A stretch of 64,000 nt of DNA, taken from NCBI GenBank assembly GCA_964608505.1, contig CAZSOV010000005.1, positions 4,114-68,113 on the forward strand, in the 5' to 3' direction. The notes beneath the pieces were generated by a model, which worked only from the letters and a program-made list of their open reading frames with translations, did not search any database and had not been told where the DNA came from. The stretch comes from an uncultured Verrucomicrobiota bacterium (GTDB taxonomy: Bacteria > Verrucomicrobiota > Verrucomicrobiia > Limisphaerales > CAIMTB01). The position numbers and the translations under genes were made by a program. Below are positions 1,473-62,010 of this stretch, piece after piece. How positions within the stretch are numbered: position 1 is the first letter of the stretch; each line of letters begins with the position of its first letter.

Positions 1473-1492
1473 GGACGGGCCGGGCGCGGGGG

Positions 1493-29564: not shown

Positions 29565-29602
29565 CGGCATCTCCACACCGAGCAAACGCAAACCAACCCA
29601 TC

Positions 29603-31709: not shown

Positions 31710-31727
31710 AGGAGAGGCCTCCAGCCA

Positions 31728-32120: not shown

Positions 32121-32316
32121 GCGCTGCGATTTACCATGGCGTTCCCGCCTCCCATCGTTCGGAGGAGCCGGGATTGTCCCTGCATGCCCACGCTCCGTCC
32201 GTTGCCGCACGCGCGGTCCGGGGATACGAAGTGCAGAGAGCCTTGATGGAGTGACGGTCCGACGCCGGCGTGCCCGTGGTCATGTCCGGCCTCCGTCGCG
32301 GGAAGGTTCGTGGATT

Positions 32317-32844: not shown

Positions 32845-32915
32845 TGATGGTGGCGTGCTCACCGATTTCCCGAGGGGAGAAGGTAGACGCGACCGCCTCT
32901 CTTTCCGTTGCCGCC

Positions 32916-34533: not shown

Positions 34534-35229
34534 TCATGGCGAGCCCGGGGTTCCGTCGTTGCCTTCGCGGAGCAGGTAACCCACGCCGCGGACGGTGTGG
34601 AGCAGGCGCGTCGGGTGGCCCTTGTCGATCCGCGCGCGGAGGTGATGGACGGTCACGTCGATGACATTGCTCAGGGGGTCCAGATCCTCGTCCCAGGCGT
34701 GCTCGGCGAGTTCGGCACGTCCGACCACCTGGTTTTTGCGGAGGAGCAGGTATTCGAGGACGGCGAATTGCTTTCCGGAGACCTCGATGCGCCGTCCCGC
34801 GCGCTCCACGACGCGCGTTCGCCGATGCACGACGAGGTCGCCGCAGCACAACTCGTCGCTGACCATCGCCTGCGGACGACGCAGCAGGGCGGCGATGCGG
34901 GCCAGCAATTCGTCGAAGTCGAAGGGTTTGGCCAGGTAATCGTCCGCCCCGCCGTTCAAGCCCGTCAGGCGATCCGCGACGGCGTCGCGCGCGGTCAGCA
35001 TCAGCACGCGGGCGGTGCAGCCGCGGGCGCGAAGGGCACGAAGCACGGCAAACCCGTCGCGCTTGGGCAGCATCACGTCGAGCAGGATCACGTCGTAGGC
35101 GGTGTTCAACGCGCGGTACTCCCCTTCCTCGCCGTCGCGCGCGATGTCGACGGCGAACGACTGTTCGCGCAGGCCTTCCGCGAGAAAGGCCGCCACCTTG
35201 TCCTCGTCCTCGACCACCAGAATACGCAC
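34534..35229 (-). CDS. OmpR/PhoB-family response regulator
   Basis: GTG start giving VRILVVEDEDKV ... VILLDVMLPKRDG ... VLMLTARD ... GADDYLAKPF. Winged-helix part LSGKQFAVLEYLLLR ... TVRGVGYLL. The track ORF extends to 35511, but the giant gene stop is at 35348. Confidence 0.9.
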   Translation of the reverse strand: MRILVVEDEDKVAAFLAEGLREQSFAVDIARDGEEGEYRALNTAYDVILLDVMLPKRDGFAVLRALRARGCTARVLMLTARDAVADRLTGLNGGADDYLAKPFDFDELLARIAALLRRPQAMVSDELCCGDLVVHRRTRVVERAGRRIEVSGKQFAVLEYLLLRKNQVVGRAELAEHAWDEDLDPLSNVIDVTVHHLRARIDKGHPTRLLHTVRGVGYLLREGNDGTPGSP

Positions 35230-35347
35230 CGCGTCCCGAGCATCCCCCGCGCAGGCGCGGGGATCAACCGCGGCAAGCCGGGGCGTTTCGGAGCCCGAAC
35301 GCGCCGGCGTGGGAAAGGCCTCGCACACGTGGAAAGCGTTCCTTGCA

Positions 35348-47300: not shown

Positions 47301-48217
47301 AAGAACTGGTTGAGGAACCCGATGTTGCCCGGGATCGCCAGGAGCCCCGTGATCGGAATCCCGCCCTTCGGTTCCCCCTCGCCCTCCAGCACCTCCTCGA
47401 AGTGGATCGGGCGCAGGGTGAACTCCGGCATCGCGGCCTGGATCTCGGGAGGCAGCACGACGGAGCGCGCCAGTTCGTCGTTGATCCGCTCCGCCTCCAC
47501 CGTCCGGTCCTCGAGCTCCGCGACCGGGATGATCTCCGTGGCCAGCCGCGCCCGGGGCGCGACCACCGGCATCCGTACCGCGAACGACTTCCCCTGCAAC
47601 ACCAGCGTCACGTCGAACTCGACGACCCGGAAGTTCGTGGCGTCGATGACGATCCCCTTGTCGCGGATCTCCTCGAGCGACAACGGACGACTGGTCACAC
47701 GGGAGACGAGGACCTCGTCGAACACCTTCACCGGAACGCTGGCCGGCGTCGCACGGACCACCGTGCCCCCGGACTGCACCCATTTCACGTCGTCGAGCTG
47801 GTACTCCCCCGCCACCCGCAGCGCGGGCAGCATCAGCGGTCGCCCGGGCTCGCCCACCAGCCGTTGGGCCGGGAACGACGGCCCGCGCAGCGTGGCCTCC
47901 AGCCGGCCTCCCTGGAAACCCGCCGCCGCCGACTCCGCCACCGCCCCGTCCCCGCGCACCACTTCCACCAGCACCGATCCCGGCACGTTGCGCGGCACCG
48001 TGACGACTTCCGGCTGCACCCGCAGCCGGCTCCCGAGCACCCGGTACTCCAGCGTCGTCAGCGGCCCGGGCGCGCCCGGCGCCGCCGGATTCCCGCACAG
48101 CCCCAGCAGCAGCCACAACCAGGCCCGAAGCGGGCCGGGGCCCGCGTTCCGGAACGCGGCGTTCGCGCAACTTCCGCCCGACACCGTGCCGCGGTGGATC
48201 TTCGCTTCTTTCCTCAT
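35348..48217 (-). CDS. Giant secreted repeat protein (4289 aa): unrecognised ~700-aa N-terminal region, carboxypeptidase-regulatory-like and Ig-like (SbsA/Big-type) beta-sandwich arrays, thrombospondin-type-3-like Ca repeats, long parallel beta-helix region, C-terminal FFRF module
   Basis: Signal peptide LRAWLWLLLGLCGNPAAPGAPG. About 20 units of the type GRVLGANGAPLPGAAVNL...DDEGGFRFTGVPLGEF (roughly 41.7-45.4 kb). SbsA-like PRIRSTTPAAGAAGVEPRPRIILGFSEAL. Asp-rich DGDDDGDGLPNAWE...DSDTDGDRVVDG...DPDSDDDGIPDGDD (about 39065-39375). G/T/L-rich beta-helix repeats (about 35.7-38.7 kb). Ends STDLRDWQPV...AAFFRFRETDW. Normal coding composition over 12.9 kb. Confidence 0.9.
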   Translation of the reverse strand: MRKEAKIHRGTVSGGSCANAAFRNAGPGPLRAWLWLLLGLCGNPAAPGAPGPLTTLEYRVLGSRLRVQPEVVTVPRNVPGSVLVEVVRGDGAVAESAAAGFQGGRLEATLRGPSFPAQRLVGEPGRPLMLPALRVAGEYQLDDVKWVQSGGTVVRATPASVPVKVFDEVLVSRVTSRPLSLEEIRDKGIVIDATNFRVVEFDVTLVLQGKSFAVRMPVVAPRARLATEIIPVAELEDRTVEAERINDELARSVVLPPEIQAAMPEFTLRPIHFEEVLEGEGEPKGGIPITGLLAIPGNIGFLNQFFSVQLFTENAAPSGSNLAVDQVRATIRLPVGKDGVPARAYDQPGDDPLRMARLGPDRLIQTNLPVMLAGADGRTGTEDDVSRLRPGETGAAEFLVEGLREGLHVLEMDLEAELHGLAAGVTRVRGRAVGSVLVRNANFSMTFSHPRTVRVGEPYEASVTLLNTGEVEANLTRVTLNRLSISGAVLLSEETVELGNLAPGESATATFRLRSQRTGSVIFSNLTTGDDAVAGRLNLTLGVDSRGVPLSPDTLVYPDWVQALPKEVFDAANRVMGQALGVATAGRLPARIRPLTRDVVTARGVELAEAGQRLRYGDDPRRVLFDLLLDWQGGRRVDPGFDQILRESDAGREWREAIVAALEGLDTEDAAARIAGLGPSLAGLGQAWHLATAPQSGFALSVQPVPDSVPTANATNDATGIAGAVLDRGLVYEGRRGAWYAGPAVADRELRWTATAAGGGGEIGFLAVRTNGTVERWQWTTGPVSVGDVFAFRPGVDAGLRRVQGTPAGPFEPRRSVFEEEAPRVLSARQDISILSDRAYLRCPIREYANWGTVLAVLFNKPMAPGDVETPGAYRLVGGDNGARTVKLQEGGRVCLLQLHRGVGSFAVRPRSYRLEVASLPDPRGHLSSPQDLDVLMADGQGTSVRGRVLGLDGNPVAGAPVTLTMSDRVGDRCLPAEYRAGQVFTDAAGYFALDFVLADVGFTIAAIDTSRMTDEDARTILGVLEEVVGGDPESRERIAGLLAGAQVREAMLRAFRAGEIGAAIAAAEGVDRATYSDYIGVGDGRMGSELAVVLRFRGRGTVEGRVLGANGAPLPGAAVNLFPALDSRELGRGVFADDEGGFRFTGVPLGEFGLEATTSDGRARRVSGRLAEPGSTATMEVRVPDVRERTGTVTGWVAEEGGAPHPGARVYLAEHIAGESAAGVAGSAEADADGAFRLTRIPVGNWQIVAVSADGTRKTEVRNLLVVDGTTVSLGLAFPPRAVVRGIVRRWDGTPAAGARVGGGDRVVTTDAQGRFELTGVPVGVGNILAGLDGPDTSDGVTRTATVQIVVKPGLNDLVELRLPARGRIRGVVYDGTGVTRVPRVRVAIPVTAGFLWVDANANGEYEFNGLGLGGYTISAPAPPVKKKADELAAEALEAIGSAAGGGDADAAAALVGELANLYAQGSMGRLTTTPFVPANWGFTSATLDFDGQTVVHDIRYLPSGRLSGTVVNPQGVPVGAQVSVSAVGPSKSGGAGVVELGPFLSDPSTGEWSASGFIVGPFTVTAKSPLLVGQAQVEGVLRADAPTRTNVVLRFPSQTDVTGRLTGLVLNPDGSPVTNGAVHISFTSDYVIGVDDQGRFDTQIRLPALDYSVLATNLVTGLVGASSVRIVGGITNFTTVRLLDRGAVRVRVLRADGRPATNAVVTLTRSSFPESTGEQAVTDDEGRATVEGLWQGEWMLRAEALEGATRATALDGVRVAPRDVVERTVTLGASGTISGVFLEEGTGRPIPGAQVFARSGSGNGVLIATAPTGADGNFAIPGVPLGSYHLTARNPTDGRVAVQTARLATANERVRVTLVEEPLGDVEGFVTAADGPGVSGVEVNYADGRGLTPPRTVTTGPAGDFRFQGVPRGEFALTATDPVAGGYASARGTFVAGESRVRVDLALPGWGTVEVRVLEPDGTTPAAGVPVRARGGREGMVTDTDAAGLATFERLDLGSILIETLPRGVGQGVNVAATNVTLRVAGEVVRTTVRLPGSGRVTGTVRSAGGALVGNALVVVESLDPGFGETTRRTLTEADGTFVLDAVRLGALTVRAVSGALAAFGGGTLAAPNATALVDLRLGGSGSVRGRIEDEDGNELRAVEVGFFFTAQNGQAGFVRALADGLGAFEAQGLPVATPIEVRIAVPALDGRRTVVARIAANGEVVDLGRLRLDQQAPRIRSTTPAAGAAGVEPRPRIILGFSEALRPESIRAAGIVLRGAGREEALDLALEDGPEGPATVLAALPRTNLASATSYTLVISGADDVDASGRPVSRGPEDLERRPLARTELLSFTVRDYLPPVTLLAFPGPEAAEVEPMAGLRWEFDEPIRTNRIDVALWAGTVRVDGAAGLNPNGRVLAWVPARPLLPDTAYRVELRGVEDLSGNVALPTTNRFSTLDTRGPRVAVLRLREGQRPVANATVMVEALLESSETDAVVRWSRNGTELGVATDGPVYSFAVRLPAEGSVRLLATGVDRAGNPGEAAVLELRVGPNERPVVELMRVEPPSGPLETGRRFGFAVLARDDATVAAVRVELRGAVTATRELFLPPNGVATNLVFDFPSAALAGGTVEVQATAYDDSGAASDLARLTYATRDATPPRMTPELPLDRAELDPREPLRVVATLSDNSRRLRWNVAATGTVIFERRFDFDVEPNVPRREELPISLADGLRGGNVVLNLTASDDAGNEVRTSRSYRLRSVVGPRLARIAAADLGYVWVAPHDEPISPWSTLYVDFDASLDARRCDTNLLEILSADGRSLPRRVTISGTSVAVQPTGPALPPGTEVRLRLLPGWVGLDGNAVNLADGAAWPAEGRSETFRVADVQGLSVANGVPAVPGQTLEIDVRHHSVFGGWQLAVNGVAANVYTFPADGTRFRVVVPTNAPSVRLLARSVRSGRTEFVLPEVALDLRSRDGDDDGDGLPNAWEADRSFVHGLRRFDPFLAADASEDFDFDRLPNRAEFLAGTDPFDSDTDGDRVVDGDEPGTGGCPSPLDPDSDDDGIPDGDDLAPCAAGEALVLAPASMTVGEGESVTNAVTATATGLTLVSLDFAPDLPRPAFVGFADFWHTGTNPIVRRVLLRPSFQDAGTHVVTFQVTARRAFSLITSNIAIPVVVEDRANSRFTRWARPVDGDWANRTNWTAGVPGIGTNAVIDLPGTYAVRLSGNVFVESLTVGGAGSGIQTLRLSGGSLGINGPSTVPATGLLLLEGGATLQGQGRLDVAGTLRLSTANVSGPGSVHVQPTGRLEVVGSALGGTARFEAPLINLGSVLISTNMTWLFGGPGFTNEAGGRVVQDRAQIRSQFGRPVLENRGEWVKRGTNEHPIVGFRFRQAGLLRAEQGPLTLQSGTVEFAPGSTNRGVGELALESVVGRIDAPLEFASGILLASTSVTNAVAQTWNQLRLASGELDGPGPVTVTKLLESEYGTLSGQGSLDIPAGAELRIPPFRQLVLERPTRVAGNAIFDTNATLRLQRATLLLSGRTELHGAVTLTGALPVDGAVIENTGTLVKLGEDRAFLWWLVLHNRGVVDVREGTLQIQSESTHDGELRVADGAALELASTILYAPGSFLGGPGEIRFDAGTHDLLGAFEPLGAWANRGAMVRVRRPLPPGGTVQSQGGQVILDVPHVLDALDVQSTEWVLRADLRVNRTLELGSSTFSGGGRLLLGTNLVGHIGGGGLQLGVDLTNEGRIEVDPFVFVTFDAARWINRGEVRFSGYTTLSGNSTTNLFLNEGTFVAGTNYVRFGGVAFAAHGRQELGATDIWFDGGTNATQLRVPSGGTAYFQNSFRHLPGSLLGGEGAIEFHSGEHVVDGAFTPEGTLVVSGGNVRVGQSLTNLGLTEIRAGTLELLRPSRLRDLRMTFGTLNAGDRVGIGRSFVWAGGDVAGAGPVTVDATATARASGFNGMRLAGTLDIAGTFAMTNSARLTFDDGTLRILSGGLLALDDTTYAWTSGGYGRLRNDGTLRKEGAEVADFDLESSGSGNWDILGGRLDLGGPVTLAGAWTVADGAEARFEGATNTIAADARFLGEGTLHWYRGDEILLLGPVDFGDLDVLFAASSLGIRGEFPIVSGPGGSLEWSGFRQDVEGSVRVRGRLEVGPNTVLRVDDTLFLEAGATLVNRGRLDGQSRSNIRVRAFPVLGGTVTGPPPDVIPPSTPLGVRPGPGSGVRALKPAAMPGPEAGSVDFPEFELEWSSAAGVRFRIEASTDLRDWQPVEADASETAVAGDGEGRTRVHRLRIRWPSGGAAFFRFRETDW

Positions 48218-51200
48218 CGGAACAGGTCCTTTCCGGTGCCAATCAGTTCACCCAGCCGGCGGGCCAGGTCCGGATTCTCGGTCGCGATCCGGCGCAACAG
48301 CACGTCCTCGACCTCGAGATTCAGAAACATGGGACGCGACATGCCCGCCTTCTCGAACGACCGGATGGCCCGGTCGGCGACCTCGTGGATCAACTCCCGC
48401 CGCAGCACGTCCGTGGCCCGGAACGTGCCCTCGGCCTTGCTCCCGGTGGCGGCGATGTCCGCCCCGTTCTGGGCCGCCGCCACCAGGTCGTCGTGCACCA
48501 GGATGATCTTGTCGTAGAGGATCCGGGCCGGATTCGCCGCCGACAGCGGCTTGCCCAGCCGCAGCGACTCGGCGTGCCCGATCACGCCCACACCGATGTC
48601 CTGCAACCGGTGCATGGCCGAGCCCATGAGGCGCTCGGGGAGGTCGAGGATCTTCGCCACGTCGGGAAGGGCCTTGGCCGCCACCAGCTCCGCCTGGCTC
48701 ATGACCTTCGTCACGGGATCGAAGAGATGGGTCAGGATCGGACCGTCGAACCGCACCCGGGGCACGACCTCGGTCAACACCTCGTCCGACCGCAGCGTGC
48801 GCCCGATCCAGGTGTCCGCGATCCCGGTCACCGCCCCCAGCCGGCTCGCGTCGTCCACGAGCCCCGCCGGCGACAGCAACGCCCGCGCCGCCTCGGCCCG
48901 GTCCGCGGAACCGCTCACCACCGACTGAATGGCCGTGCGCGCCTCCCGGACGCGCGAGGCACGGGCGACGTTCGCGAGCGCGCCGCCGACGGTCCCGCCG
49001 ATCTGCATCACGTCCGCGCCGGCGGCGAGATAGTCCCAGCCGGAGGGTGCCACGCCGGTGGTGTCCTCGACGGCGAGTTTGCCGCTGAGGGTGCCGAGGC
49101 CGGAGCCGACGTTGAGGGCGCCGCCGACGTACTGGCCCACGGCCTTGACGACGCCCGCGGCCACGGCCTGGGCCCAGCCGGGGTCGTCGCCCGCCGTCGC
49201 CACCATGTCCGCCAGTTGATCCGTGAAGTACTGCAGTTTGTCGCCCGAACCGCCCGTCGCCACGAGGGCTTCGAGCTGCTTGACCTTCGCCATGCTCGCC
49301 CGCGCCTCGGCCTGGCCACGCTCGACGCTCCATTCCAGGTAGGCCTCGTTGTATTTGTCCGCCCGATCCAGGCTCTGTTCGAGCTCCCGAATCGCCTGGG
49401 CCGCTGCTTCCTTCGCCTCCTTGCGCGCCTCGGCGATGACCTTCCGGTCCGACCACCAGGGCACGTAATGCTCGCCCGTCTCCGAATCGATGACGGTGTT
49501 GCGCAGCGACGGATCGACGTCCTTGTCGCTCCTGCCCTTCTTCGTCCCCGTATCCTCCCGGATCGAGTCGTCCCCGCCCCCGCCCCCACCCTTGCCGCCG
49601 CCCGCGTCGGCCTTCTCGTTCGCGTACCCGGTCGGGTCCACCCACGCCAGGGGATTGCCGAACGCGTACAGGTACCGATGCAGGCTCGCCGGGGTCCCGG
49701 CCTCGCCCGGGAACGCGTCCTGGCCGAGGAACCGCCCCTGCTCGTCGTCGTAATATCGTGCCCCGAAATAGTGCAGTCCGGTTTCCGCGTCCCGATAGTG
49801 CCCCGTGAACTGGCGTTCGTTGGCGACCGTCGACGCGCTGGCGGTCAGTCGTCCCCAGGCATCGTACCGGTACTCCGCCTCGCGCGCTCCCGACGCGGCG
49901 GTGAGGTGCACCGTGCTGCCCAGCGCGTCGGTCAGGTAGAAATGCCGGTCCAGGCCCGCGGCTCCTGCCGCCCGCGGCGTGCCCATCGCCAGCAGGCTGC
50001 CCCCCTGGTCGTACGTGCGCAGCGTCACGTGTCCCGCCGCCGCCGGACCGTACTCCAGCGCCACCGCCGCCTGATCGTAGAGATACCGCGTCTCCCCGGC
50101 GGCGGAGATCTTCTTCACCCGCATCCGGTCGGCCCCGTAGTCGAAGCGCGTCCAGGCTTCGGCCTCGCCGGTTTCGATCATCCGGTCCCGGATGTCGTGC
50201 CGGAACCGGCGCGCGATCCCGTCCTGTTCCCGAGAGACCTGGTTCAGGTTGGAGTCGTACCGGTACGTGATGGTTCGCGCCGCCGACAAGAGATCCTCGA
50301 TGCGCGTCAGGGCGTTCATGCCGTCGAAGGTTCCCGTCACGCCCGGCAACGCGCCGTACCGGAACACCCGATCCATCGGTTGGCCGGTCACGAAGTCGGT
50401 GCCGCGTTCCGTCAGGCGATTGCCGTTCGGCGCGTAGGTGTATCGCACACTGGCTCCGGCCCCGTTCGTCACCGCCGTCAACCGGTTCAGACCGTCGTAC
50501 CCGTACCGCGTGGTCTCCGGCACCGGGCCCAGGCCCGGGTTGAACTCCACCTGTTCCAGGCGGTTTCCGTTCGCGTCGTAGCGGTACCCGAACGAGGACA
50601 ACACCGTGCCACCTCCGGCCGCGGCGTTGGTGATCGAGAGGAGGCGGTCCGCCGCGTCGTAGGCCCGGGACGCGGACACGCCGCCCGGATAGTCCACGCG
50701 CCGCAACAGGCCGTCGGTTTCCCACCCGTATCCCACGGTCAGGGCGCCCGCACCCGTGCCTGCATCGAGGGTCACGGTCTCCAGCCGGTTGCGGTCGTCG
50801 TAGGCATACCGCGTCACCCGGCCGTCGGCGTCCGTCGATTCCGTCCGGTTGCCCGCGACGTCGTACCGGAAGCCCAACCGGCGGCCCGCCACGTCGTCGT
50901 GGTCGTGCCGCGTCCGTTCCATCAACCGGTCCAGCGCGTCGAACGCCTGGACGGTCCGTTCGGTGACCGCCGCCGCCCCCAGTTGCTTGGTTTCGCGAAT
51001 CTCGAGTTCGTTCCCGTTCCCGTCCCGCACCCACTCGATCCGCAGGGGCTGGAACTCCGCCGGATTCCCCGCCGTCCGCTCGGCGTGGCCCGTGTAGATC
51101 CGTTGCACCACGCGGTTCAGGTGGTCGTGGGAGGTTTCGATCCGCTGGCCGCGGGGGTCGACCAGCAGCGCGGGGTTGCCGTTGCCGTCGTACCCGTAGG

Positions 51201-57200: not shown

Positions 57201-60200
57201 CGCCCGGTCTCGAACCCGGCACCCCGGGTTGCTCGAAGGCGAGGGTGTATTGGTAATCGGGCACCAGCACCATCGCCCGTGCCGGACCCGGCAGCGCTCG
57301 GGCATCGAGCCGCACCGGGCGCGCCGGAATCGAGACGTCGTACCGGTTCAACGTCTGTTCCCTCCGATCCAGAACGTACGCGTACGCCCCCCGCACCGCC
57401 ACGCCGCCGCCCTCGGTCACGCCGGACAAGGCCCCCAGCACCGCCGGCGCCGTCCGGAACCGCAGCACGAACGGCTCGTTCGTCGGTGCCGACGTCGTCG
57501 GGTCCTGATCCAGATATTGTCCCGTCAAATCCTGCACCCCCGCCACGTTCAACACGTACTCGCGGCCGTTCTCGAGCGCGGGAAATCGCAAGGTGACCTC
57601 CCTCGGGTCCGCGAGCATCGACGCCTGCACCGGACCGCCCGCCGGACTCAGCGTCACGTATTGCGACGGGTTGCGCGCCAGGTCCGGACTCACCCATTCG
57701 CTGAACCGCAGCCGGAATTCCGCCAGCGGATCCACGCCCATCGCGCCTTCGTCCGGCTGGGAGTACAGCACGCGCGGCCCGAGCGGATCGTTGACCGGGG
57801 CCAGCGGCGCCGGCGGGTCCCCCACCCGCACCACGTGCAGCGTCTCCCCGGAATTGCCGAACGCATCCGTCGCCCGCGCCCGCAGCACGACCTTGGCCTT
57901 CGCGTTCGCGGTCACCTCCCACGCCCCCGGCAATCCCGCCACCAACGTCACCAACGCCGTCGCCGGTTCCACCGATTCCACCGTCAACGTCGAGCTCGCC
58001 GGCCCGCTCTCGTCCACCGCCTCCACCCGCACCCCGACCCGGTCGCCCGGCGCCGGTTGCACCGGACGATGCAGCACCGTGATCGACGGCGGCGTCGTGT
58101 CCGGGGTCGCCTCCCGGTTGAACCGGATCTTGCCGCCGCCGAACGGGTGGATGGGATCGAACCGCGTGCCCGCCGAGCTCGTCGCGAATTGCCGGGGAAA
58201 CGACGGATGCGTCGCCGTCAGGACGTGCCCCTGCCCCGGGCTTCCCTGCCCCGTCTGCTCCGGCACGAGAAACGCGAATCTTCCGTCCCCGCCGCTGGTC
58301 ACCACCAGTTCCCCGCCCTGCAGGCTGAACGGTCGCGAGTTCAACGCCGACAACGCCCGCGCCCGCACCACCGCTCCGCCCAGCGGCACGTCGGTGTCCG
58401 GATCAGCGTCCAGGCCGCCGCGGAACAACGCCGACGTGGTCTGCCCGATCAGCTCCGTGTTCGAGTAGTACACGTTGCCCACGAGCATCACCCGCGCCGC
58501 CGCCGGATCGACGAAGGCGTAGAAGCCCGCAAACAACGCCGCCGGCTCCCGCCGCCCCGCCAACGCCAACGACAGGGCCCGCGCCGCCCCACCCGCACCC
58601 GCACCCGCCGGTGTCAGCACCGACAAATACTCGTACACCGGCACCGTCCGCTCTGCCCCGTCCGCGAATTCCGTGATCTCGCGGAACGCCGTCGCCATGA
58701 GCGTCAGGTCGTCCAGCGTCCGCCCCGGCGGCGGCACCCACCGGCCCGGCTCCGGACGTACCTCAATCCGGACCTTCCCCTGCACCGCATCCCCCTCCAC
58801 CGCCAGATCGAACCCGCCGAACAACGTCGCGTCCTCCGGTGCCGTGCCCTGCGTCGCCGCACCCAGCTCCTCCGCGCGCAGCGGCGTCAGCCGGAAGCGC
58901 GTCCGCCCCAACACCGCCCCCGCCGGCACGTCCAACACGATCTGGAGATCGTCGTTCCGGTTGGTCACCCGCCCGCCCTCGCTGAACAACGCCACGCTCC
59001 CGTCCGGGAACAACTGGCGCCCCACCGGATACGTCGACCGCGTGCCGTCCGGATGCACGAGGACCACGCTCAACCGATCCCCCTCGTCCGCCGCCAGGCG
59101 CTGCGCGAAACTCCCGTCCGGCTCCGTGAAACCCGACGAGGTCCGACCGGTCGTCCCGTTCACGAACAGGATCGGCTGGCGCGGCAGGCCCATGCCCGGA
59201 CTTCCCCGCACCCACGCCTCCCCGTTCGCATCCGGCGCCTCGCTGACCAGTTGCGCCCCCGCCGCCCGCTCGAACTTCCGCGCCACCGTCGTGAACCCGA
59301 ACTCCCGCGCGCCGATCAACCGGTTCCCGCGCGCGTCCTCCACCGTCGCCCCCACCCGCACGACGTGCGCCGTCGCCTCGGCCAGTTCGTTCGACGCGAT
59401 CAACCGCGCGACCCGGCCCTCGTCCTCCCACTCCAACCGCGCCGGCACCGCGTTGGAACGCGCGTCCAGCAGTTCCACCCCGGGTCCGCCGCCCCCCACC
59501 CGCACCGCCTTGCTGAACCGGACCACGACCGGCGTCAGCAAGCCCACGTCCACCGCCCCCGCCGCCGGAACGACCTCCGCCACGAACGGAGCCGCCGCCG
59601 CCGTCGTCATTGCCACCGCCTCCGCCACCCGCGTGGCCGGCATCGTGAACGCGCGGCTCGCCGCCTCGCCCGTCACCGGATCCCGCGTCACCAGCATCCC
59701 GTCCCCCACCCCAGCGACCAATCGAAAGCCTCCCGCCGCGTCCGTCCGCGCGCCCCACGGCGTCCCCGCCACCCGCACCTCCGCGCCGCGCACCGCCGCC
59801 CCTGCCGCGTCCCGCAACGTCCCGGCCACGATCCCCACCCCCGAGGTCACCCGCACCAGCACGTACTGCCCGGAACGATCCACGCCCGACAACGCCGCCG
59901 CACCGTCCGTCGTCGACTCCGACACCGTGCCCCCGCCGACGGTCCACGCCGCGACCGGTTCCAGTCCGGTCTCCGCGCCCTCGTACCAGCGCCGGGCCAG
60001 CACGTAGTTCCCGTCCTGCGGCGCCGGATCGAAGCGCACGCGCCACCGGTCGCCCGGACCGCCCATGCCCGCCGCCAGCGCGAACGCCGCGACCCCGTCG
60101 CCCAAGGACGCCGCATTGGTTTCGAACCCCACCTCCACCGCGCGGCCCGGCTGATTCGCCGGCCCCTCCGTCGACACCACCAGGCCCGACACCTTCAGAT

Positions 60201-62010
60201 CGCCGCGCACCCCGCCCACCACCCCGCCCGCGAAGGCGGCCTCCGGCAGAATCTCCGCCGTGATCCGCGCCTCCTCCAACCGCGCCGCCCCCATCAACAG
60301 CCCCGGACGAAGGGGGAACTCCGCGAATGCGCTCGACGCGCCGTCCCGCCCGACCCGCCGACGCAACGTCAACGACGCCTCGTAGCCCATCGGCGCACGC
60401 ACGCTGCCGTCCGCCAGCCGGTACTCCTCCCGGACCCAGGCCCGCAACGCCGTCCCGCTCGGGATCGACCCCAGCCGGTTCGTCACCTCCAACTCCGCCA
60501 TGCCCCGGACCTCCACCACGTTGGTCGAGGCCACCACCGCGCCCGGCCGGACCCGACCCCAGGCCAGCCAACCGGAGACATCGACCACCCGCGCCGCGCG
60601 CTCCGGCAGCACCACCCCCGGCACGGGTATGGGCACGGCCACGGGGACCGCCCCCTGCGTCGCCGCGCCCTCCGCGTCCGCCGACACCACCGCATACGCG
60701 GCGGGTTCCGGCAGCGCGAACTCGATCCAGTCACTTTCCCGCGCCGAACCGTTTTCCACGACGCGCCACGCGAGGTTCGCGGCGTCGAACCGCGCCAGCA
60801 CCACCGGCGCGGGCGTCGCGGGAAACACGTCCTCCGTCCGCACCCCCACCCGTGTCCCCGCCGGCCATGCACCCGGCGCCTCGGCCCACCACGCGCGTTG
60901 CAGCGACCAACCCAGCGGCAGAGGGAACGGCAACGCCTGCGACTCCAGCACCGTCACCTCGACCCCCGACCCCGCCGCCGCGCCGCCCGCGAACGTGCCC
61001 GCGTCGACCCGCAACCGGTTCGTGATCTCGCGCCATCCCCCGCCCGTCGTCGGTCGTATCACCCATCCCGACCGTCGTGTCAGCCGGGGCGTGGACAACT
61101 TCACGACCTCCAACGCCTCGAGCCGCGCCGTCCGCCAGACCGGCAGGTACCCCTCTGCCTCGAATCGCCATCGGTATTCCCCGGGCTTCCCGCCCAGCGA
61201 CACCGCCCCCGCCTCCGGGTCGCTGGTCAGCGTCGCCGCGCCCGCCGGCAACAACGGCGTCACCCGCGCCCCGCCCATCGGACGACCCTCCCCGTCCAGC
61301 ACCCGCGTGAACGCCAGCGGCTCCTCCACCGGCCTCGTCCGCGCCGCCACGTAGACCCGCGTCGACAACACCGGCGCCTCGTTTCCGAGCCTGCCGAGCG
61401 TGATCGACCGCGCCCTCGTGGTTTCCCCCGGGGCCAGCACCCCGTCGCCCGTCCCGCCCGACAGATCCCAGAAGCGCGGTTCCTCCGCCGGACTCCCGGC
61501 CACGTTGTCCGCGTCCCCCGGACCGCTCGTGCCCCGTGACTCCGCCACCGCCAGCAGCAGCGCACCCGTCAACTCGCCCGCTCCGACGTTGGCCACCGTC
61601 ACCTCCGCCTGCCAGGCGCCCACGAACCGGCTCCACCGCATTCCCGCAAACCGCACCCTCACCTGGCCCGTCACGTCGTCGAACTCCGCCGTCCCGCCCG
61701 CCAACCGGAACGTCCGCGACCCCTCCGCCGCCCCCACCCCCAACCCCAACCCCAGCCACATCCACATCCACACCCACACCCCAACCCAAGCCCACCCTCG
61801 GACCAGCGACCCCCACGTTTGGAACTTTGAACTTGGATCTTGGAGCTTCCCCCACCCGTCATGGCACTCCGCCCCCCACCCTCGGTCAGCGCAACCCACC
61901 CCTTGGAACTTTGAGCTTTGATCTTGGAGCTTCCCCACCTCTCCCCACCCCGGACCCCACCCCCGACCTTCCACCCCTTGGAACTTTGAGCTTTGACCTT
62001 GGAGCTTCAT
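48214..62010 (-). CDS. Giant RHS/YD-repeat protein with teneurin-like layout and novel C-terminal payload (4598 aa from ATG 62010, or 4517 aa from ATG 61767)
   Basis: Dozens of YD repeats (YEYDGLDRV, HEYDALGRRV, HAYDALSRRE, FQYDRLHRLV ...) between about 49.6 and 55.1 kb. Shell start GVDLWDGHLTHARQDVAVPGRKLALDFSRTYSS...GAGWTHN. RHS core end FTGHYRDAETGLHYFGARYYDDEQGRFLGQD...YLYAFGNPLAWVDPTGY, then a 469-aa tail. N-terminal ~2200 aa of Ig-like, CarboxypepD_reg-like and beta-propeller-like units. The track ORF runs to 63219, but that 5' part is an R/G/A-rich shadow of the upstream gene. Confidence 0.9.
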   Translation of the reverse strand: MKLQGQSSKFQGVEGRGWGPGWGEVGKLQDQSSKFQGVGCADRGWGAECHDGWGKLQDPSSKFQTWGSLVRGWAWVGVWVWMWMWLGLGLGVGAAEGSRTFRLAGGTAEFDDVTGQVRVRFAGMRWSRFVGAWQAEVTVANVGAGELTGALLLAVAESRGTSGPGDADNVAGSPAEEPRFWDLSGGTGDGVLAPGETTRARSITLGRLGNEAPVLSTRVYVAARTRPVEEPLAFTRVLDGEGRPMGGARVTPLLPAGAATLTSDPEAGAVSLGGKPGEYRWRFEAEGYLPVWRTARLEALEVVKLSTPRLTRRSGWVIRPTTGGGWREITNRLRVDAGTFAGGAAAGSGVEVTVLESQALPFPLPLGWSLQRAWWAEAPGAWPAGTRVGVRTEDVFPATPAPVVLARFDAANLAWRVVENGSARESDWIEFALPEPAAYAVVSADAEGAATQGAVPVAVPIPVPGVVLPERAARVVDVSGWLAWGRVRPGAVVASTNVVEVRGMAELEVTNRLGSIPSGTALRAWVREEYRLADGSVRAPMGYEASLTLRRRVGRDGASSAFAEFPLRPGLLMGAARLEEARITAEILPEAAFAGGVVGGVRGDLKVSGLVVSTEGPANQPGRAVEVGFETNAASLGDGVAAFALAAGMGGPGDRWRVRFDPAPQDGNYVLARRWYEGAETGLEPVAAWTVGGGTVSESTTDGAAALSGVDRSGQYVLVRVTSGVGIVAGTLRDAAGAAVRGAEVRVAGTPWGARTDAAGGFRLVAGVGDGMLVTRDPVTGEAASRAFTMPATRVAEAVAMTTAAAAPFVAEVVPAAGAVDVGLLTPVVVRFSKAVRVGGGGPGVELLDARSNAVPARLEWEDEGRVARLIASNELAEATAHVVRVGATVEDARGNRLIGAREFGFTTVARKFERAAGAQLVSEAPDANGEAWVRGSPGMGLPRQPILFVNGTTGRTSSGFTEPDGSFAQRLAADEGDRLSVVLVHPDGTRSTYPVGRQLFPDGSVALFSEGGRVTNRNDDLQIVLDVPAGAVLGRTRFRLTPLRAEELGAATQGTAPEDATLFGGFDLAVEGDAVQGKVRIEVRPEPGRWVPPPGRTLDDLTLMATAFREITEFADGAERTVPVYEYLSVLTPAGAGAGGAARALSLALAGRREPAALFAGFYAFVDPAAARVMLVGNVYYSNTELIGQTTSALFRGGLDADPDTDVPLGGAVVRARALSALNSRPFSLQGGELVVTSGGDGRFAFLVPEQTGQGSPGQGHVLTATHPSFPRQFATSSAGTRFDPIHPFGGGKIRFNREATPDTTPPSITVLHRPVQPAPGDRVGVRVEAVDESGPASSTLTVESVEPATALVTLVAGLPGAWEVTANAKAKVVLRARATDAFGNSGETLHVVRVGDPPAPLAPVNDPLGPRVLYSQPDEGAMGVDPLAEFRLRFSEWVSPDLARNPSQYVTLSPAGGPVQASMLADPREVTLRFPALENGREYVLNVAGVQDLTGQYLDQDPTTSAPTNEPFVLRFRTAPAVLGALSGVTEGGGVAVRGAYAYVLDRREQTLNRYDVSIPARPVRLDARALPGPARAMVLVPDYQYTLAFEQPGVPGSRPGAVKRGDLIVVAGQTQGAAWGYIRVYELGENFAVAPHVAGGPISMDETALLTRLSWSAPYLLLTENSAFAPQVHVLNLQSLLLGDAYREVPRDVLDTLPPRYQPGRDLNLDGDFVDAGEALPVQGQDTLELVVGEEAVLSLAPNRTTDAGAYHLVRSGRYITDAVADGAGSLALLLTTSGIDQVMEVDWRPVRTNTWNRPAALRAYVIGGASPDTALPPAIPNGYVLEFPGWYPKRLLPVPSALRRLVLVNLISADNATNSLRIIDASRPDFLVEAGEIPLPVSEYGLLQGAELDDRGRVALSLARPSGMDLVFLDVAKLLAPVGASGVHPAILGRISGAGAGVTPFAVLGSGVTAASLRNLNVVSQSAPWVRLLPAGRATAEAMAVIDPEERFAALRALVEPPQLPVIGQGTNAALPATDPAFRWHVMVEAPGGAGSTIRLAVMSLGPDGTLAAGTNSLLASFDDAVVLHRLSHDALSPAFNAYVSGPLSLADDASGAADLQPARGVQVVLRAGSRVRVGIPESMAPNPVLGPFSGLGTLVANPPPNAAPVRLGASVARPVSVLSPSLNLETPVVVRTTVDRVNQRACPGSAWLEFEVNPDAEITILLDGRPLTGGLDELGRSIPVFTNVAFTAGSHRVLVDAAHLPRAGEFPVEAVGTRFAGLAPDRTLTVSGMIEHEVEMNHSFPIGHAVIQGVDLWDGHLTHARQDVAVPGRKLALDFSRTYSSSGNGSAGPLGAGWTHNHHIRLEERCGVFTVVGGEGTGHAFVDPVPDPVREARYARFLPAASGRWEFFRAQVGYHSVLARDTGRPAEAWYFTKSAVRYHFLVDGSRGTSSGRVFPLQSVREPNGNELRLAYEDGDANRETLDTVTEFDPTGLPKRGFRFEYRRIAGADRMVALRGFNRQGSPDLLGLEIRYAYDDVGHLTNVTRVGASAAETRTDRYVYTPEQGGPNAHNLVEWTDPNGMVTRYEYFPTGAAGYYALAGVLDGVPPHEMVRTVTRVGAARPGFEAAADAVTRFTYDFAGGTRRVSDPRAAAGVPDTVYVLNAYGATLRIEAPLGQTTTMEWATDHLDGSVRDEAGQPVRDVLLTRKVDAEGLETRFEYHDGRGNVTRETTRVAPGKTPVFDRTGAATTTSELVQVYHPVFNVPLSVVDAEGSTTTFAVDDATGNLVRSEDAAGNVTTFEYQPGGDVRVRRDPRGHETRFTRYDAYGNAEVVVDPEGNQVEQTYDERSRLRESRDTFTHHRRIEYDGLDRVISEVRLNDLSGLGGGPDARTGTSYLAGGLVRFQTNALGLVTAHEYDALGRRVRSVQRDVRQVDGSRVSYTNSWQHDVVGNVLRETDARGVTRTHAYDALSRRERTVVSGPHGGPGAGGGLVSAVTFDRVNNTLSEINRHGLTNRYEYDGFHRQSAHHLPVAGARLETRRDRIGNVLRSTDANGRATGFQYDRLHRLVRRTDPEGNATEFGYDAAGNRTLQHDHASGLVTTNAFDRIGRPTLAVLNGPGVPGYVTRTRYDDARNEIRVTNARGFASRVRKDGLDRLVEQVVAEGVLDLTNRMTHDAAGNVLEVVDARNGDVDLVHAYDELGRRLSTRWVATPDDQGRPVTEELAYDGAGQAVWRRDRRGFEHRATFDNLGRPRTQELRESVSGNGAWLVLAETVYDDAANAQDTYDAARNRARIEFDGLGRPRSVRDPVGRTLSTTYDGVNPTVRVDGRGQRTTTVYDGLNRPLVVREFDAAGVERSSITNVYRDSARRREMTDRNGRTTVVEVDALGRETGVWRSGGNLAARYGADPLRLSRTEYDGNSNLVRTEDGDGRVVTHEYDAADRRTASTEGAGTAVAATTRFEFDAVGNVVSAKDPRAHGAAHDVRHEYDARNRRIATSNALGETTRQHYDAANNVVERIDPRGGRTRYEYDELNALLAVDESARGTAADAGVTRFRYDATRNRVAQQDPDGNLVTREFDGLNRMTAVLQHAAPGTLGATANRGAGPGGNAATAFRWTYGYDGNGNPALLVDPRGQRIETSHDHLNRVVQRIYTGHAERTAGNPAEFQPLRIEWVRDGNGNELEIRETKQLGAAAVTERTVQAFDALDRLMERTRHDHDDVAGRRLGFRYDVAGNRTESTDADGRVTRYAYDDRNRLETVTLDAGTGAGALTVGYGWETDGLLRRVDYPGGVSASRAYDAADRLLSITNAAAGGGTVLSSFGYRYDANGNRLEQVEFNPGLGPVPETTRYGYDGLNRLTAVTNGAGASVRYTYAPNGNRLTERGTDFVTGQPMDRVFRYGALPGVTGTFDGMNALTRIEDLLSAARTITYRYDSNLNQVSREQDGIARRFRHDIRDRMIETGEAEAWTRFDYGADRMRVKKISAAGETRYLYDQAAVALEYGPAAAGHVTLRTYDQGGSLLAMGTPRAAGAAGLDRHFYLTDALGSTVHLTAASGAREAEYRYDAWGRLTASASTVANERQFTGHYRDAETGLHYFGARYYDDEQGRFLGQDAFPGEAGTPASLHRYLYAFGNPLAWVDPTGYANEKADAGGGKGGGGGGDDSIREDTGTKKGRSDKDVDPSLRNTVIDSETGEHYVPWWSDRKVIAEARKEAKEAAAQAIRELEQSLDRADKYNEAYLEWSVERGQAEARASMAKVKQLEALVATGGSGDKLQYFTDQLADMVATAGDDPGWAQAVAAGVVKAVGQYVGGALNVGSGLGTLSGKLAVEDTTGVAPSGWDYLAAGADVMQIGGTVGGALANVARASRVREARTAIQSVVSGSADRAEAARALLSPAGLVDDASRLGAVTGIADTWIGRTLRSDEVLTEVVPRVRFDGPILTHLFDPVTKVMSQAELVAAKALPDVAKILDLPERLMGSAMHRLQDIGVGVIGHAESLRLGKPLSAANPARILYDKIILVHDDLVAAAQNGADIAATGSKAEGTFRATDVLRRELIHEVADRAIRSFEKAGMSRPMFLNLEVEDVLLRRIATENPDLARRLGELIGTGKDLFR
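61818..62010 (-). repeat. Three copies of a ~33-nt A/T-richer motif (coding-strand consensus GAAGCTCCAAGRTCAAAGCTCAAAGTTCCAAGG) embedded in G-runs
   Basis: Copies at 61818-61850, 61901-61934 and 61976-62010 (plus-strand TTGGAACTTTGAGCTTTGATCTTGGAGCTTCC). Copy-to-copy spacing is 84 and 75 nt. The array lies between the stop of gene 62010..63194 and the hydrophobic N-terminus of the RHS protein. Confidence 0.85.

Follow-up and report, generated by a model that had tools for sequence, protein, structure and literature searches.

The 64,000-nt window analyzed here, the whole stretch of DNA under study, carries on its minus strand a genuine RHS/YD gene, one unbroken open reading frame (ORF) that runs to a stop codon at 48214-48216. 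Its product of ~4,517 aa is probably a Sec-exported RHS/YD cocoon protein with no T6SS link, a member of a family whose named and genome-scan members come almost exclusively from Verrucomicrobiota, with a tail that would serve as a polymorphic effector. The first-pass annotation had already placed an RHS giant at 48214-62010, and most of its domain map holds (Table 1): the TTR-like and Big_5 units, the propeller, the Ig-like domain with a DUF6531 plug, the shell, the core and the tail. It had also proposed that the protein is a membrane-anchored prokaryotic counterpart of the full teneurin architecture. Here, the same kind of parts list is present, but the domains are different, they stand in a different order and no type II membrane anchor is predicted.

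Table 1. Coordinates of the RHS gene features and of the flanking genes. Residues are counted from the ATG at 62010, as in the first-pass annotation.
Feature	Position	Strand	Residues	Evidence and remarks
Upstream cassette gene, ~393 aa	62010..63191	-		GC3 frame analysis; signal-peptide-like N-terminus
~55-nt repeat, three copies	61812..62025	-		Core GAAGCTCCAAGrTCAAAGCTCAAAGTTCCAAGG; spacing 75 and 84 nt
Hydrophobic W/G/L stretch, WAWVGVWVWMWMWLGLGLGVGAAEG	61720..61794	-		Read as Sec signal peptide h- and c-regions
Family-specific conserved N-terminal region	59851..61716	-	99-720	Family members align collinearly, E 1e-50 to 1e-160
CarboxypepD_reg (TTR-like)	59716..59829	-	728-765	Pfam PF13620, E 3.2e-9, 37.4 bits, over curated cut-off
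Big_5 (SbsA-type) Ig-like domain	59287..59595	-	806-908	Pfam PF13205
Second Big_5 Ig-like domain	57502..57780	-	~1411-1503	Pfam PF13205, E 4.1e-9; directly precedes propeller
Beta-propeller	56074..57453	-	1520-1979	AlphaFold2 model; Foldseek; LVIVD matches to first blade
Conserved alpha/beta domain	55642..56070	-	~1981-2123	AlphaFold2 secondary structure, pLDDT mostly 80-96; conserved motifs in family consensus
Ig-like beta-sandwich	55153..55536	-	~2159-2286	AlphaFold2 model; just before plug
DUF6531 plug, Rhs/Tc cork type	54901..55116	-	2299-2370	Pfam PF20148, E 6.4e-13
YD/RHS repeat shell	49867..54900	-		Pfam RHS_repeat, E 7.9e-86; TIGR01643; all solved-structure matches fall here
RHS-associated core (aspartyl autoprotease motif)	49624..49866	-	4049-4129	TIGR03696, E 9.5e-21, 74 bits vs cut-off 32.5; Rhs_assc_core match 4049-4128
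Variable tail, presumed encapsulated payload	48217..49623	-		469 aa after core
Downstream secreted giant, 4,289 aa	35348..48217	-		Start codon overlaps RHS stop (ATGA)

The choice of start codon is ambiguous. ATG 61767, ATG 61761 and GTG 61779 are rated likely, and ATG 62010, which would give a protein of 4,598 aa, is kept as an alternative because it overlaps the stop codon of the upstream gene as ATGA. The Lys-containing N-terminal repeat described earlier (residues 1-72) does exist, as a threefold ~55-nt DNA repeat, but its codon usage looks non-coding: it scores -0.19 per codon, lower than all 122 true coding windows (minimum, 0.34), and GC3 across the region is low, at 0.5-0.7 in the GC3 frame analysis. 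No Rfam, promoter or terminator match was obtained for the repeat region, and the element was not found in JGI metagenomes. This stretch is probably an untranslated or non-coding spacer or a recent insertion; if translation begins at ATG 62010, it would probably be an inserted extension of the signal peptide n-region.

The W/G/L stretch that follows is a real hydrophobic segment, with an in-frame codon-usage score of +0.27. In ~30 homologues its position is occupied by a classical Sec signal peptide, directly ahead of a conserved mature N-terminus ("RTFxLxG..DVT..V.V.F..MR.NR") that starts immediately after the W/G/L segment. This alignment with cleavable signal peptides argues against a type II membrane anchor, and the segment is read as a predicted Sec signal peptide. 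The proposed membrane-anchored (type II) topology thus has to be given up; the first-pass annotation had itself named a cleaved signal peptide here as a refuting outcome.

Upstream of the propeller, ~1,400 aa had been assigned to Ig-like and TTR-like units. Pfam recognizes just one TTR-like and two Big_5 units within the first ~1,500 aa; the remainder is conserved but specific to the protein's own family. Residues 99-720 contain one weak CarboxypepD_reg-like unit (E 0.0013, under the Pfam cut-off). A profile search of solved structures links the region of the first Big_5 domain to the Ig-like domain of TssM and to Sap, an S-layer protein.

The LVIVD/beta-propeller-like region at ~56.1-57.4 kb folds as a beta-propeller in the AlphaFold2 model, which was built from a 31-sequence alignment (mean pLDDT 82, pTM 0.75; most of the propeller >90). 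The model has 28-31 strands in groups of four, or 7-8 blades, a number counted from the strand pattern rather than from coordinates. Foldseek returns propellers, among them integrin alpha-V (1e-10), DDB1, the Cdc4 WD40 domain and the clathrin NTD; teneurins and TLPs are absent from the top 50 matches and TcB from the top matches. The first blade is LVIVD-like, since LVIVD-repeat proteins repeatedly match residues 2-70 of the propeller region, and the domain contains an Asp-rich loop with the family consensus DxNGDGDYVDxGD. No Pfam model, NHL included, matches the region even at E<=10. The propeller, as modeled, is LVIVD-like with 7-8 blades and not of the six-bladed NHL type.

An alpha/beta domain and an Ig-like domain, both modeled confidently like the propeller, separate it from the plug and shell. 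What had been called an Ig-like plug proved to be an Ig-like domain, correctly placed, in front of a plug of the DUF6531 cork type rather than an FN-plug. This Ig-plus-DUF6531 module by itself occurs in RHS proteins of many phyla. The plug was modeled at low confidence by AlphaFold2, and the family profile of the plug region had a sole solved-structure match, to residues 260-301 of RhsA (7q97; E 0.005). The YD shell of ~1830 aa at ~49.6-55.1 kb was confirmed by Pfam RHS_repeat and TIGR01643; plug, shell and core together span ~1,830 aa, which is unusually long for a single chain and close to what TcB and TcC form jointly as a shell. The core also stands as annotated: an Rhs_assc_core match covers it, its motif is intact and ends ...NPLAWVDPTGY, and this autoprotease core is conserved.

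When the family profile of the shell was compared with solved structures, T6SS RhsA scored highest (234 bits), followed by the bacterial TLP structures 9pt5 and 9ifo (145-151), TcB-TcC fusions (~84, mainly at the core) and metazoan teneurins (42-70). T6SS Rhs effectors (RhsA of P. protegens, Tse5, Tse15, Tre23) have the greatest shell and core similarity to the giant and share its DUF6531 plug type, that of the RhsA plug region, and its C-terminal autoprotease motif. The reading of the protein as an ordinary T6SS Rhs effector is nevertheless contradicted by its remaining features, and we give it next to no credence. Homologues carry Sec signal peptides, and the giant has a predicted one in place of PAAR, prePAAR and VgrG or VgrG-binding features, all of which are absent. 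Ahead of the plug it has ~2,200 extra residues of beta-sandwich, propeller and unassigned family-specific modules. As the earlier annotation held, it is much larger than typical T6SS Rhs effectors, three to four times the size of the characterized ones; its plug-to-core span far exceeds the whole RhsA chain in 7q97 (1,426 aa). Moreover, a scan of 19 predicted proteins across the window detected no PAAR, VgrG or T6SS gene, and there is no adjacent immunity gene.

A teneurin reading has some points in its favor. In metazoan teneurins (e.g., Ten2, 6fb3), too, plug and propeller cap a YD shell and TTR-like or Ig-like modules lie upstream; the C-terminal payload completes a comparable parts list, the TLP structures match the shell profile at 145-151 bits, and TEN_YD-shell is listed in precomputed Pfam for some family members. 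The protein could then be a genuine membrane-anchored bacterial teneurin-like protein with the full superfold (TTR, FN-plug, NHL, YD shell), close to the ancestor of animal teneurins. However, the FN-plug, NHL and TEN_YD-shell models do not match the giant even at E<=10, and a profile of its N-terminal half matched no TLP, teneurin or TcB chain. Plug and propeller folds both differ from those of metazoan teneurins, and the order FN-plug, NHL, shell is replaced by one in which the propeller lies ahead of the plug. EGF repeats, an ABD or Tox-GHH domain and a type II anchor are lacking, whereas the autoprotease core, lost in metazoan teneurins, is intact. The shell itself shows no special teneurin affinity: T6SS Rhs outscores TLPs and teneurins, and metazoan teneurins have the lowest similarity among the cocoon classes compared. 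A shell of this kind was another outcome that the first-pass annotation had listed as refuting its proposal. Verrucomicrobiota, finally, are not among the six phyla of the published TLP survey (PMC13018210). The full-teneurin-homologue reading is largely refuted, and we regard it as very improbable. Because the teneurin-resembling parts are different domains in a different order, the giant appears to run parallel to teneurins in its design rather than to be ancestral to them.

A functional parallel is offered by the bacterial TLPs themselves (BiTLP, PDB 9ifo, 9pt5; Raoelijaona et al. 2026, PMC13018210). These too are Sec-type secreted giants without a T6SS link; they have adhesion-type Ig/TTR modules at the N-terminus, a YD shell that a propeller and a plug cap, and an Rhs aspartyl-protease core with a polymorphic C-terminal domain in the shell (for our protein, encapsulation is presumed). 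In contrast, TLP caps consist of an FN-plug and then a six-bladed NHL propeller, whereas in the giant a 7-8-bladed LVIVD-like propeller comes first, followed by an alpha/beta domain, an Ig domain and finally the DUF6531 cork; no similarity to FN-plug, NHL or TIP was found in it. TLP C-terminal domains average ~15 kDa, as against the 469-aa tail of the giant, whose shell measures ~1,830 aa, and almost all TLPs have a downstream immunity gene, which the giant lacks. By this comparison the giant appears to be functionally analogous to bacterial TLPs, built from different cap domains and outside the TLP group.

The propeller region has 229 homologues, dozens of which are proteins of 4,000-4,500 aa that are collinear from the N-terminus to the core. 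Members with a named source (MAGs) or from the genome scan are almost all from Verrucomicrobiota; the family is a Verrucomicrobiota one, previously uncharacterized. A three-gene cassette of a small secreted protein, the RHS giant and a second giant of ~4,300 aa was kept in all nine loci that reach both neighbors. The upstream ~393-aa protein matches no Pfam or NCBIfam family. Its homologues immediately precede the RHS gene in L002, L003, L006, L007, L008, L009 and L014. Distant family members have small PEP-CTERM-like proteins upstream that are homologous to its N-terminal domain, and in the RHS giants P0030, P0040 and P0071 this domain occurs as an N-terminal fusion. Orthologues of the downstream giant directly follow the RHS gene in L001, L002, L006, L007, L008, L009, L014, L053 and L054. 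This protein contains CarboxypepD_reg repeats in 6 matched stretches, a pair of Big_5 domains, Asp-rich repeats of TSP3-like type and a long region of beta-helix-like repeats. At every locus examined the gene next to the RHS gene on this side is the second giant, with no ORF of immunity-gene size following the RHS gene.

Such a cassette could encode a Tc-like (ABC) toxin, in which the RHS giant would be a fused BC part whose propeller gates the cocoon, while receptor binding and translocation, the tasks of the A-type component, would fall to the downstream giant. Eukaryotic targets would then explain the absent immunity gene, which Tc BC components (TcdB2-TccC3, YenBC) also lack. They are comparable in cocoon size, enclose a large payload, as the giant presumably does, and combine a propeller with a cork-type plug, a type homologous to the TcB constriction domain (PMC8765631); the strict conservation of the second giant, with its start overlapping the RHS stop, fits as well. 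We nonetheless consider a Tc-like system improbable. SpvB and TcdB_mid domains are absent from the RHS protein, and its similarity to Tc components is low outside the core. Its propeller is N-terminal to the plug in a single chain, whereas the TcB propeller forms an insertion within the shell. A TcA-like gene is missing: the partner giant, of beta-sandwich and beta-helix type, lacks VRP1, TcA_TcB_BD and neuraminidase-like domains, and its only matches are to CarboxypepD_reg, Big_5 and related beta-sandwich domains.

The tail has the 469-aa length first assigned to it. A charged helical segment leads into a mildly hydrophobic one rich in Gly (tail residues ~145-225, by hydropathy) and then an unassigned C-terminal domain; no Pfam, NCBIfam or solved-structure match was found. 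The Gly-rich segment suggests action on, or insertion into, membranes, and many family tails contain similar segments that resemble membrane-active modules. Two homologues, P0001 and P0003, carry the same tail at 71-74% identity. The similarity to P0003 is mosaic: identity is 66-80% from the plug through shell and core to the tail, but only 33-49% in the N-terminal half. Across the family, tails are 185-470 aa long and fall into 16 clusters among 31. Strongly varying tails on an otherwise collinear protein are a signature of polymorphic effectors. Counting against the effector reading are the absence of Pfam matches above cut-off in this tail and in nine other family tails, and that of an immunity gene at the loci examined.

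These same two observations (no known toxin domain in the ten tails, no adjacent immunity gene) would suit a mainly structural or adhesive surface protein, whose cocoon would act as a scaffold in contacts between cells or between cell and substrate, as it does in metazoan teneurins, and whose tail would be no toxin. The long Ig/TTR stalk modules and the LVIVD-type propeller are in keeping with this role, and so is the operon, whose other products are a second adhesin-like giant and a small protein with PEP-CTERM-like relatives. It is, in our judgment, unlikely, given an autoprotease core that is intact and conserved, tails that vary strongly on an otherwise collinear protein, and the resemblance of the Gly-rich segments in many tails to membrane-active modules.

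The polymorphic effector reading places the giant in known company. RHS toxins that depend on Sec and carry beta-propellers form an established class (PMC3482391), and the giant falls in the broad class of Sec/T2SS-dependent RHS polymorphic toxins (Zhang et al. 2012, PMC3482391), whose combination of signal peptide, beta-propeller, RHS repeats and variable C-terminal domain it shares. A conserved 2,200-aa N-terminal architecture, a second-giant cassette and the absence of adjacent immunity genes were not found in the literature searched for this class. We propose that after export the shell would fold around the tail, with the plug closing its other end; the core would cleave after ...DPTG, leaving a ~50-kDa tail enclosed. 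The N-terminal stalk and propeller may tether the cocoon to the cell surface and engage a partner or target, the likely partners being the two conserved neighbors, the small secreted protein and the second giant. The tail would be delivered as a polymorphic effector.

The giant RHS gene is a single minus-strand open reading frame in a window of about 70% GC. Residues are numbered here from ATG 62010, the start codon chosen in the first-pass annotation, which gives a product of 4,598 aa. Pfam and NCBIfam scans of this product bore out most of the domain map drawn in that annotation, namely the CarboxypepD_reg unit, the Big_5 domains, the YD repeats, the core and the tail (see the table). Indeed, the Pfam RHS_repeat model matches at least 13 stretches (E = 7.9e-86), the YD-repeat model TIGR01643 matches at E = 6e-52, and the shell also matches solved Rhs cocoons in a family profile search. 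The Rhs core model TIGR03696 scores 74.1 bits against a cut-off of 32.5, and the PxxxxDPxG autoprotease motif is present as PLAWVDPTGY (residues 4120-4129), where the variable C-terminal domain begins. By these shell-length repeats and the core with its putative autoprotease motif, the protein belongs to the RHS/YD-repeat cocoon proteins of the Rhs superfamily. Residues 1-620 contain no curated model at or above its cut-off and one weak CarboxypepD_reg-like match (E = 0.0013); residues 909-1410 match no curated model. The order from N- to C-terminus is Ig/TTR modules, propeller, alpha/beta domain, Ig domain, cork plug, shell, core and tail. The first-pass observation was largely right, and it is the N-terminal part that needs correcting.

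Features of the RHS gene, its product and the surrounding DNA (window positions unless residues or another locus are given)
Feature	Position	Strand	Length	Basis or content
IS200/Y1 transposase-like gene	3721-4806	minus
DUF1501 gene next to PSCyt1/PSCyt2/PSD1 gene	6826-11400	minus
Multihaem protein gene	24857-27289	minus	810 aa	Cytochrome_C7, paired CXXCH, PKD, Big_9
Molybdopterin sulfite-oxidase-like gene	28455-29564			Pfam-confirmed
Lower-GC stretch	29600-32850			GC 0.63-0.66
HAMP/HisKA histidine kinase gene	32916-34400	minus
OmpR-type response regulator gene	34534-35511	minus
Second giant gene	35348-48217	minus	4,289 aa
RHS stop codon	48214-48216	minus
CarboxypepD_reg	residues 728-765			Pfam
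Big_5	residues 806-908 and ~1411-1503			Pfam
DUF6531	residues 2299-2370			Pfam
RHS/YD repeats	throughout residues 2380-4048			Pfam/NCBIfam
Rhs_assc_core	residues 4049-4128			NCBIfam; end PLAWVDPTGY
Tail	after Rhs core		469 aa	no family match
Threefold tandem repeat	61812-62025	minus
Upstream protein gene	62010-63191	minus	393 aa	secreted-type
Threefold repeat in related locus L002	9760-9990 of L002
Upstream protein gene, distant-clade locus L053	9342-9986 of L053
Upstream protein gene, distant-clade locus L054	9268-9939 of L054

The correction concerns the hydrophobic W/G/L stretch (residues 73-97), which had been proposed as a type II membrane anchor. This stretch has a positive in-frame codon-usage score and coincides exactly with the classical Sec signal peptides of about 30 full-length homologues. 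In these the signal peptide is directly followed by a conserved mature N-terminus, K/RTFxLxG...DVT..V.V.F..MR.NR...W.VEV, the counterpart of which in the RHS protein is SRTFRLAGGTAEFDDVTGQVRVRFAGMRWSR. Judged by this alignment, the segment is a signal peptide, presumably cleaved, and not a type II anchor, whichever start codon applies. Given the signal peptides of the homologues, we also dropped the idea that the whole N-terminal ~100 residues, hydrophobic stretch included, are non-coding.

The first 72 codons from ATG 62010 consist of three copies of a ~55-nt DNA repeat, at spacings of 75 and 84 nt. GC3 is not elevated in any frame across this stretch, and the codon-usage log-likelihood of the 72 codons, -0.19 per codon, lies below that of all 122 true coding windows drawn from the RHS gene and its neighbour (minimum 0.34), which weakens ATG 62010 as the start. 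The likely start codon is ATG 61767 or 61761, or GTG 61779. ATG 62010 is still a possible start because it overlaps the stop codon of the upstream gene as ATGA, because relatives begin 'MK...' immediately after the upstream gene, and because the related locus L002 has an analogous in-frame threefold repeat, of different sequence, at the same spot; the repeat spacings in multiples of three lend it further support. The repeat itself lies between the upstream gene and the RHS signal peptide, and the frame remains open through it. In L002 the spacings are 78 and 78 nt, and there too the frame is open and the ATGA overlap is present. The two repeats are unrelated in sequence, and the codon usage of both is unlike that of coding DNA; at this position other relatives have a short spacer only. 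The intergenic repeat had no Rfam, promoter or terminator match and was absent from the JGI metagenomes. Candidate explanations are a mini-satellite insertion, an array with a regulatory role, or a lengthening of the n-region of the signal peptide.

The propeller-like region noticed in the first-pass annotation does fold as a beta-propeller in the predicted structure. No Pfam model, NHL included, matches residues 1520-2295, even at E<=10. A word-index search for homologues of residues 1520-2300 found none; an exhaustive HMMER search yielded 229, including 83 at E<=1e-10. A single-sequence AlphaFold2 model was unusable (pLDDT 32), and the region was modeled on a 31-sequence family alignment (A1), giving a mean pLDDT of 82 and a pTM of 0.75. 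Model residues 1-460 form 28-31 strands in groups of four, mostly with pLDDT >90, a grouping that indicates a propeller of seven to eight blades; residues 462-604 form an alpha/beta domain and residues 640-767 an Ig-like sandwich. By its predicted blade count, the propeller is not of the NHL type. Foldseek matched the model to solved propellers, among them integrin alpha-V (E = 1e-10), DDB1, Cdc4 WD40 and the clathrin NTD, and no teneurin, TLP (bacterial teneurin-like protein) or TcB chain was among the top 50 matches. The weaker HMMER matches in many proteins fall repeatedly on residues 2-70 of the region, with 5-19 repeats each, and all ten of the shorter such matches scanned with Pfam are LVIVD-repeat proteins. 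The Pfam LVIVD model (PF08309) has no match on the RHS protein at E<=10. The HMMER matches support the earlier remark on LVIVD likeness for the first blade, the only blade with a clear likeness.

C-terminal to this cap lies the plug. Within residues 2141-2400, Pfam at E<=10 returned DUF6531 (E = 6.4e-13) and nothing else; there is no FN-plug match. A family profile of the plug had a sole match among solved structures, a weak one (E = 0.005) to residues 260-301 of the T6SS effector RhsA of P. protegens (7q97); no TLP or teneurin chain was matched by this profile, and the plug region alone matched nothing with phmmer. As expected without the surrounding shell, the DUF6531 plug was modeled with low confidence. 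According to Günther et al. (PMC8765631), plugs of the RhsA type share homology with the constriction domain of TcB and have no relation to the FN-plug of teneurins. These matches point to a cork-type plug of the RhsA kind, as in T6SS Rhs effectors.

Shell affinity was judged by scoring a full-length family profile, made from alignment A2, against solved structures. Almost all matches fall in the shell, with two weak Ig-like matches to TssM in the N-terminal half. The highest score is that of T6SS RhsA (7q97; 234 bits), with other T6SS Rhs proteins at 136-188 bits, the bacterial TLPs 9pt5 and 9ifo at 151 and 145, TcB-TcC fusions, mostly at the core, at ~84, fly Teneurin-m at 70 and vertebrate teneurins at 42-53. 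The Pfam TEN_YD-shell model has no match on the RHS protein and is listed, mostly as weak, for some of its relatives. A profile of the N-terminal half (alignment A5) matched generic Ig-like and CarboxypepD_reg structures only, and no teneurin or TLP. The first-pass annotation had read the protein as a membrane-anchored prokaryotic counterpart of the teneurins. That reading is only partly supported. The parts list is analogous; support is lacking for the membrane anchor, for the teneurin affinity, given the profile scores, and for the teneurin-like order, since the propeller precedes the plug here and teneurins and TLPs run FN-plug, NHL, shell.

RHS/YD cocoons have been sorted into three structural classes by shell cap and delivery route (PMC8765631). 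In teneurins and TLPs an FN-plug seals the shell and a 6-bladed NHL propeller lies between this plug and the YD shell, whereas the RHS protein has a DUF6531 cork plug with a predicted 7-8-bladed propeller N-terminal to it. Metazoan teneurins have a type II transmembrane anchor and an intracellular N-terminal domain, in contrast to the signal-peptide-like N-terminus found here, and almost all TLPs have an immunity gene directly downstream, where the RHS gene has the second giant. T6SS Rhs effectors share the cork-type N-terminal plug with the RHS protein. However, they carry a PAAR, prePAAR or VgrG-interacting N-terminus, none of which was found in the RHS protein with Pfam or NCBIfam, and its homologues have Sec signal peptides. 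Tc BC proteins are marked by SpvB and TcdB_mid and by a TcA partner gene, none of which Pfam matched in the RHS protein or the second giant. Moreover, the TcB order, as read from the published TcdB2 architecture, is plug, shell, inserted propeller, shell, so that the propeller sits within the shell and not before the plug. The RHS protein falls within the broad class, already described, of Sec-dependent RHS polymorphic toxins with beta-propellers (PMC3482391), and would be functionally analogous to the bacterial TLPs, which were described in 2026 from six phyla, Verrucomicrobiota not among them (PMC13018210). It is without the FN-plug, NHL propeller and downstream immunity gene that define TLPs, and without the defining T6SS and Tc features, and is a distinct variant by its cap.

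Region-by-region phmmer searches found dozens of proteins of 4,000-4,500 aa collinear with the RHS protein from the N-terminus to the core, and two distant members at ~30% identity have the same Pfam domains. Those with a named source come from Verrucomicrobiota MAGs, where their annotation goes no further than 'Ig-like domain-containing protein' or 'RHS repeat-associated protein'. When the GTDB species genomes were scanned with five close sequences, propeller and plug were matched in full in seven Verrucomicrobiota MAGs (Limisphaerales and others); the hits are biased, since the search patterns lay in the plug. Identity reached 56% at best, and therefore the source species is not among the GTDB species representatives scanned. 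The Ig-plus-DUF6531 module by itself occurs in RHS proteins of many phyla. One full-length propeller-plus-plug match, on a 3.7-kb contig (L004, JBIKWS010000537.1), is binned as a Cyanophyceae MAG; the region was otherwise seen in Verrucomicrobiota only, and this contig is probably mis-binned. The clade at ~30% identity has an extra insert of ~100-150 A2 consensus columns between the last YD repeats and the Rhs core (consensus ...YDAWGQPxIE..D...P....V......LLVxFSExVLP...), which, from the A2 consensus, the RHS protein of the window appears not to have. In the window, the DUF1501 gene and its PSCyt1/PSCyt2/PSD1 neighbour form a pair typical of the Planctomycetota-Verrucomicrobiota group, which fits the taxonomic assignment.

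Tail length in the family ranges from 185 to 470 aa, and 31 tails form 16 clusters. The tail in the window recurs in the homologues P0001 and P0003 at 71-74% identity, and its Gly-rich N-terminal part is common to P0002. Identity to P0003 is 33-49% in the N-terminal half, 66-80% over plug, shell and core, and 74% in the tail; the corresponding values for P0002 are 42-56%, 53-68% and 32%. The RHS protein (window 48217-61767) is thus closer to P0002 in its N-terminal half and much closer to P0003 from plug to tail, a mosaic that suggests recombination near the plug boundary, exchanging whole shell-plus-tail modules and not tails alone.

The RHS gene is embedded in a conserved cassette. Its stop codon overlaps the start of the second giant gene as ATGA. 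The second giant has a signal peptide and ~850 aa that match no family. It also contains CarboxypepD_reg repeats and two Big_5 domains, TSP3-like repeats rich in Asp, and beta-helix-like repeats over ~1,300 aa; its C-terminal domain ends in FFRFRETDW and has a weak DUF3999 match. The upstream protein, encoded directly 5' of the RHS gene, has no family match; NCBIfam was uninformative on both neighbours, and BLASTP among the three proteins found no shared segments. Both neighbours are kept in all nine sufficiently long related loci (L002, L003, L006, L007, L008, L009, L014, L053 and L054), the last two being distant-clade loci with the same layout as the window. The open frame of the second giant overlaps the RHS stop codon in six of six related loci checked, and its start, placeable in four of these, lies from 4 nt before to ~14 nt after that stop.

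The distant-clade upstream proteins are shorter (214-223 aa) and end in a PEP-CTERM-like motif of VPEP, a hydrophobic helix and then Arg; the Pfam PEP-CTERM matches (E = 0.037 and 0.0073) are below cut-off but sit at the exact C-terminus. Their N-terminal domain is homologous to the upstream protein of the window (E = 1e-15), which differs from these versions in having extra modules ending in FFRL, FLRV and FFRI-type motifs. Three RHS giants (P0030, P0040 and P0071; E = 1e-23 to 1e-37) carry the same domain, with the shared motif GFG[TS].E...F.D.F[ST], as an N-terminal fusion, and this argues that the upstream protein and the RHS protein work together. The response regulator and histidine kinase genes directly downstream of the second giant may regulate the cassette.

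The tail in the window has no Pfam or NCBIfam match and only chance-level matches to solved structures (E>=0.058), and nine other family tails have no Pfam domain above cut-off. The tail in the window has a mildly hydrophobic, Gly-zipper-like segment and, judged by the RHS architecture, may be toxic. No immunity ORF was seen between the RHS gene and the second giant in the window, in six related loci, or in L053 and L054, and the ORFs of the lower-GC region (29.5-32.9 kb) included no immunity candidate. Since no immunity gene adjoins and no toxin domain can be recognised, two other readings stay alive: that the protein is mainly structural or adhesive, which we consider unlikely, and that it is Tc-like and acts against eukaryotes, which we consider very unlikely. 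The predicted proteins scanned in the window included no T6SS, Tc-A or CDI proteins.

From reading of their translations, ORFs in the lower-GC stretch look like small redox/sulfur-type genes, encoding a DsrE-like 152-aa protein, a SoxB/5'-nucleotidase-like metallophosphoesterase, a small membrane protein and a thioredoxin-like protein; the molybdopterin sulfite-oxidase-like gene adjoins them. This stretch is unrelated to the RHS cassette. Farther away are the transposase-like gene and the multihaem cytochrome c protein with its Ig-like domains, probably of the extracellular electron-transfer type.

The best-supported reading is that the RHS cocoon would be exported by Sec, independent of a T6SS. 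The long stalk and the propeller would display it, the upstream protein and the second giant would act with it as conserved partners, and the variable payload would presumably be encapsulated and then released through autoproteolysis. We propose, tentatively and with low confidence in the proposal as a whole, a fourth class of YD cocoon beside Tc BC, teneurin/TLP and T6SS Rhs: a Sec-exported, single-chain shell of BC size, capped by an LVIVD-type propeller, alpha/beta domain, Ig domain and cork plug. It would belong to an undescribed three-protein Verrucomicrobiota surface apparatus (a small PEP-CTERM-like or fused partner, the RHS giant and a second giant of ~4,300 aa) and would deliver variable payloads of up to ~50 kDa without an adjacent immunity gene. 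If this is true, it would point to non-kin or eukaryotic targets, or to a new means by which the producing cell protects itself.

The family represents another route to a propeller-capped cocoon that is secreted, here in a phylum not covered by the TLP survey, with a different cap, a much larger shell and payload, a conserved partner pair and no adjacent immunity gene. If structure confirms the model, the design of propeller, plug and YD shell would have arisen more than once, and domain composition by itself would be an unsafe guide to teneurin ancestry. How cocoons are displayed and opened without a T6SS or a Tc A-component was left unanswered in the TLP paper (PMC13018210), and the confirmed structure would make this a three-gene system in which to study it.
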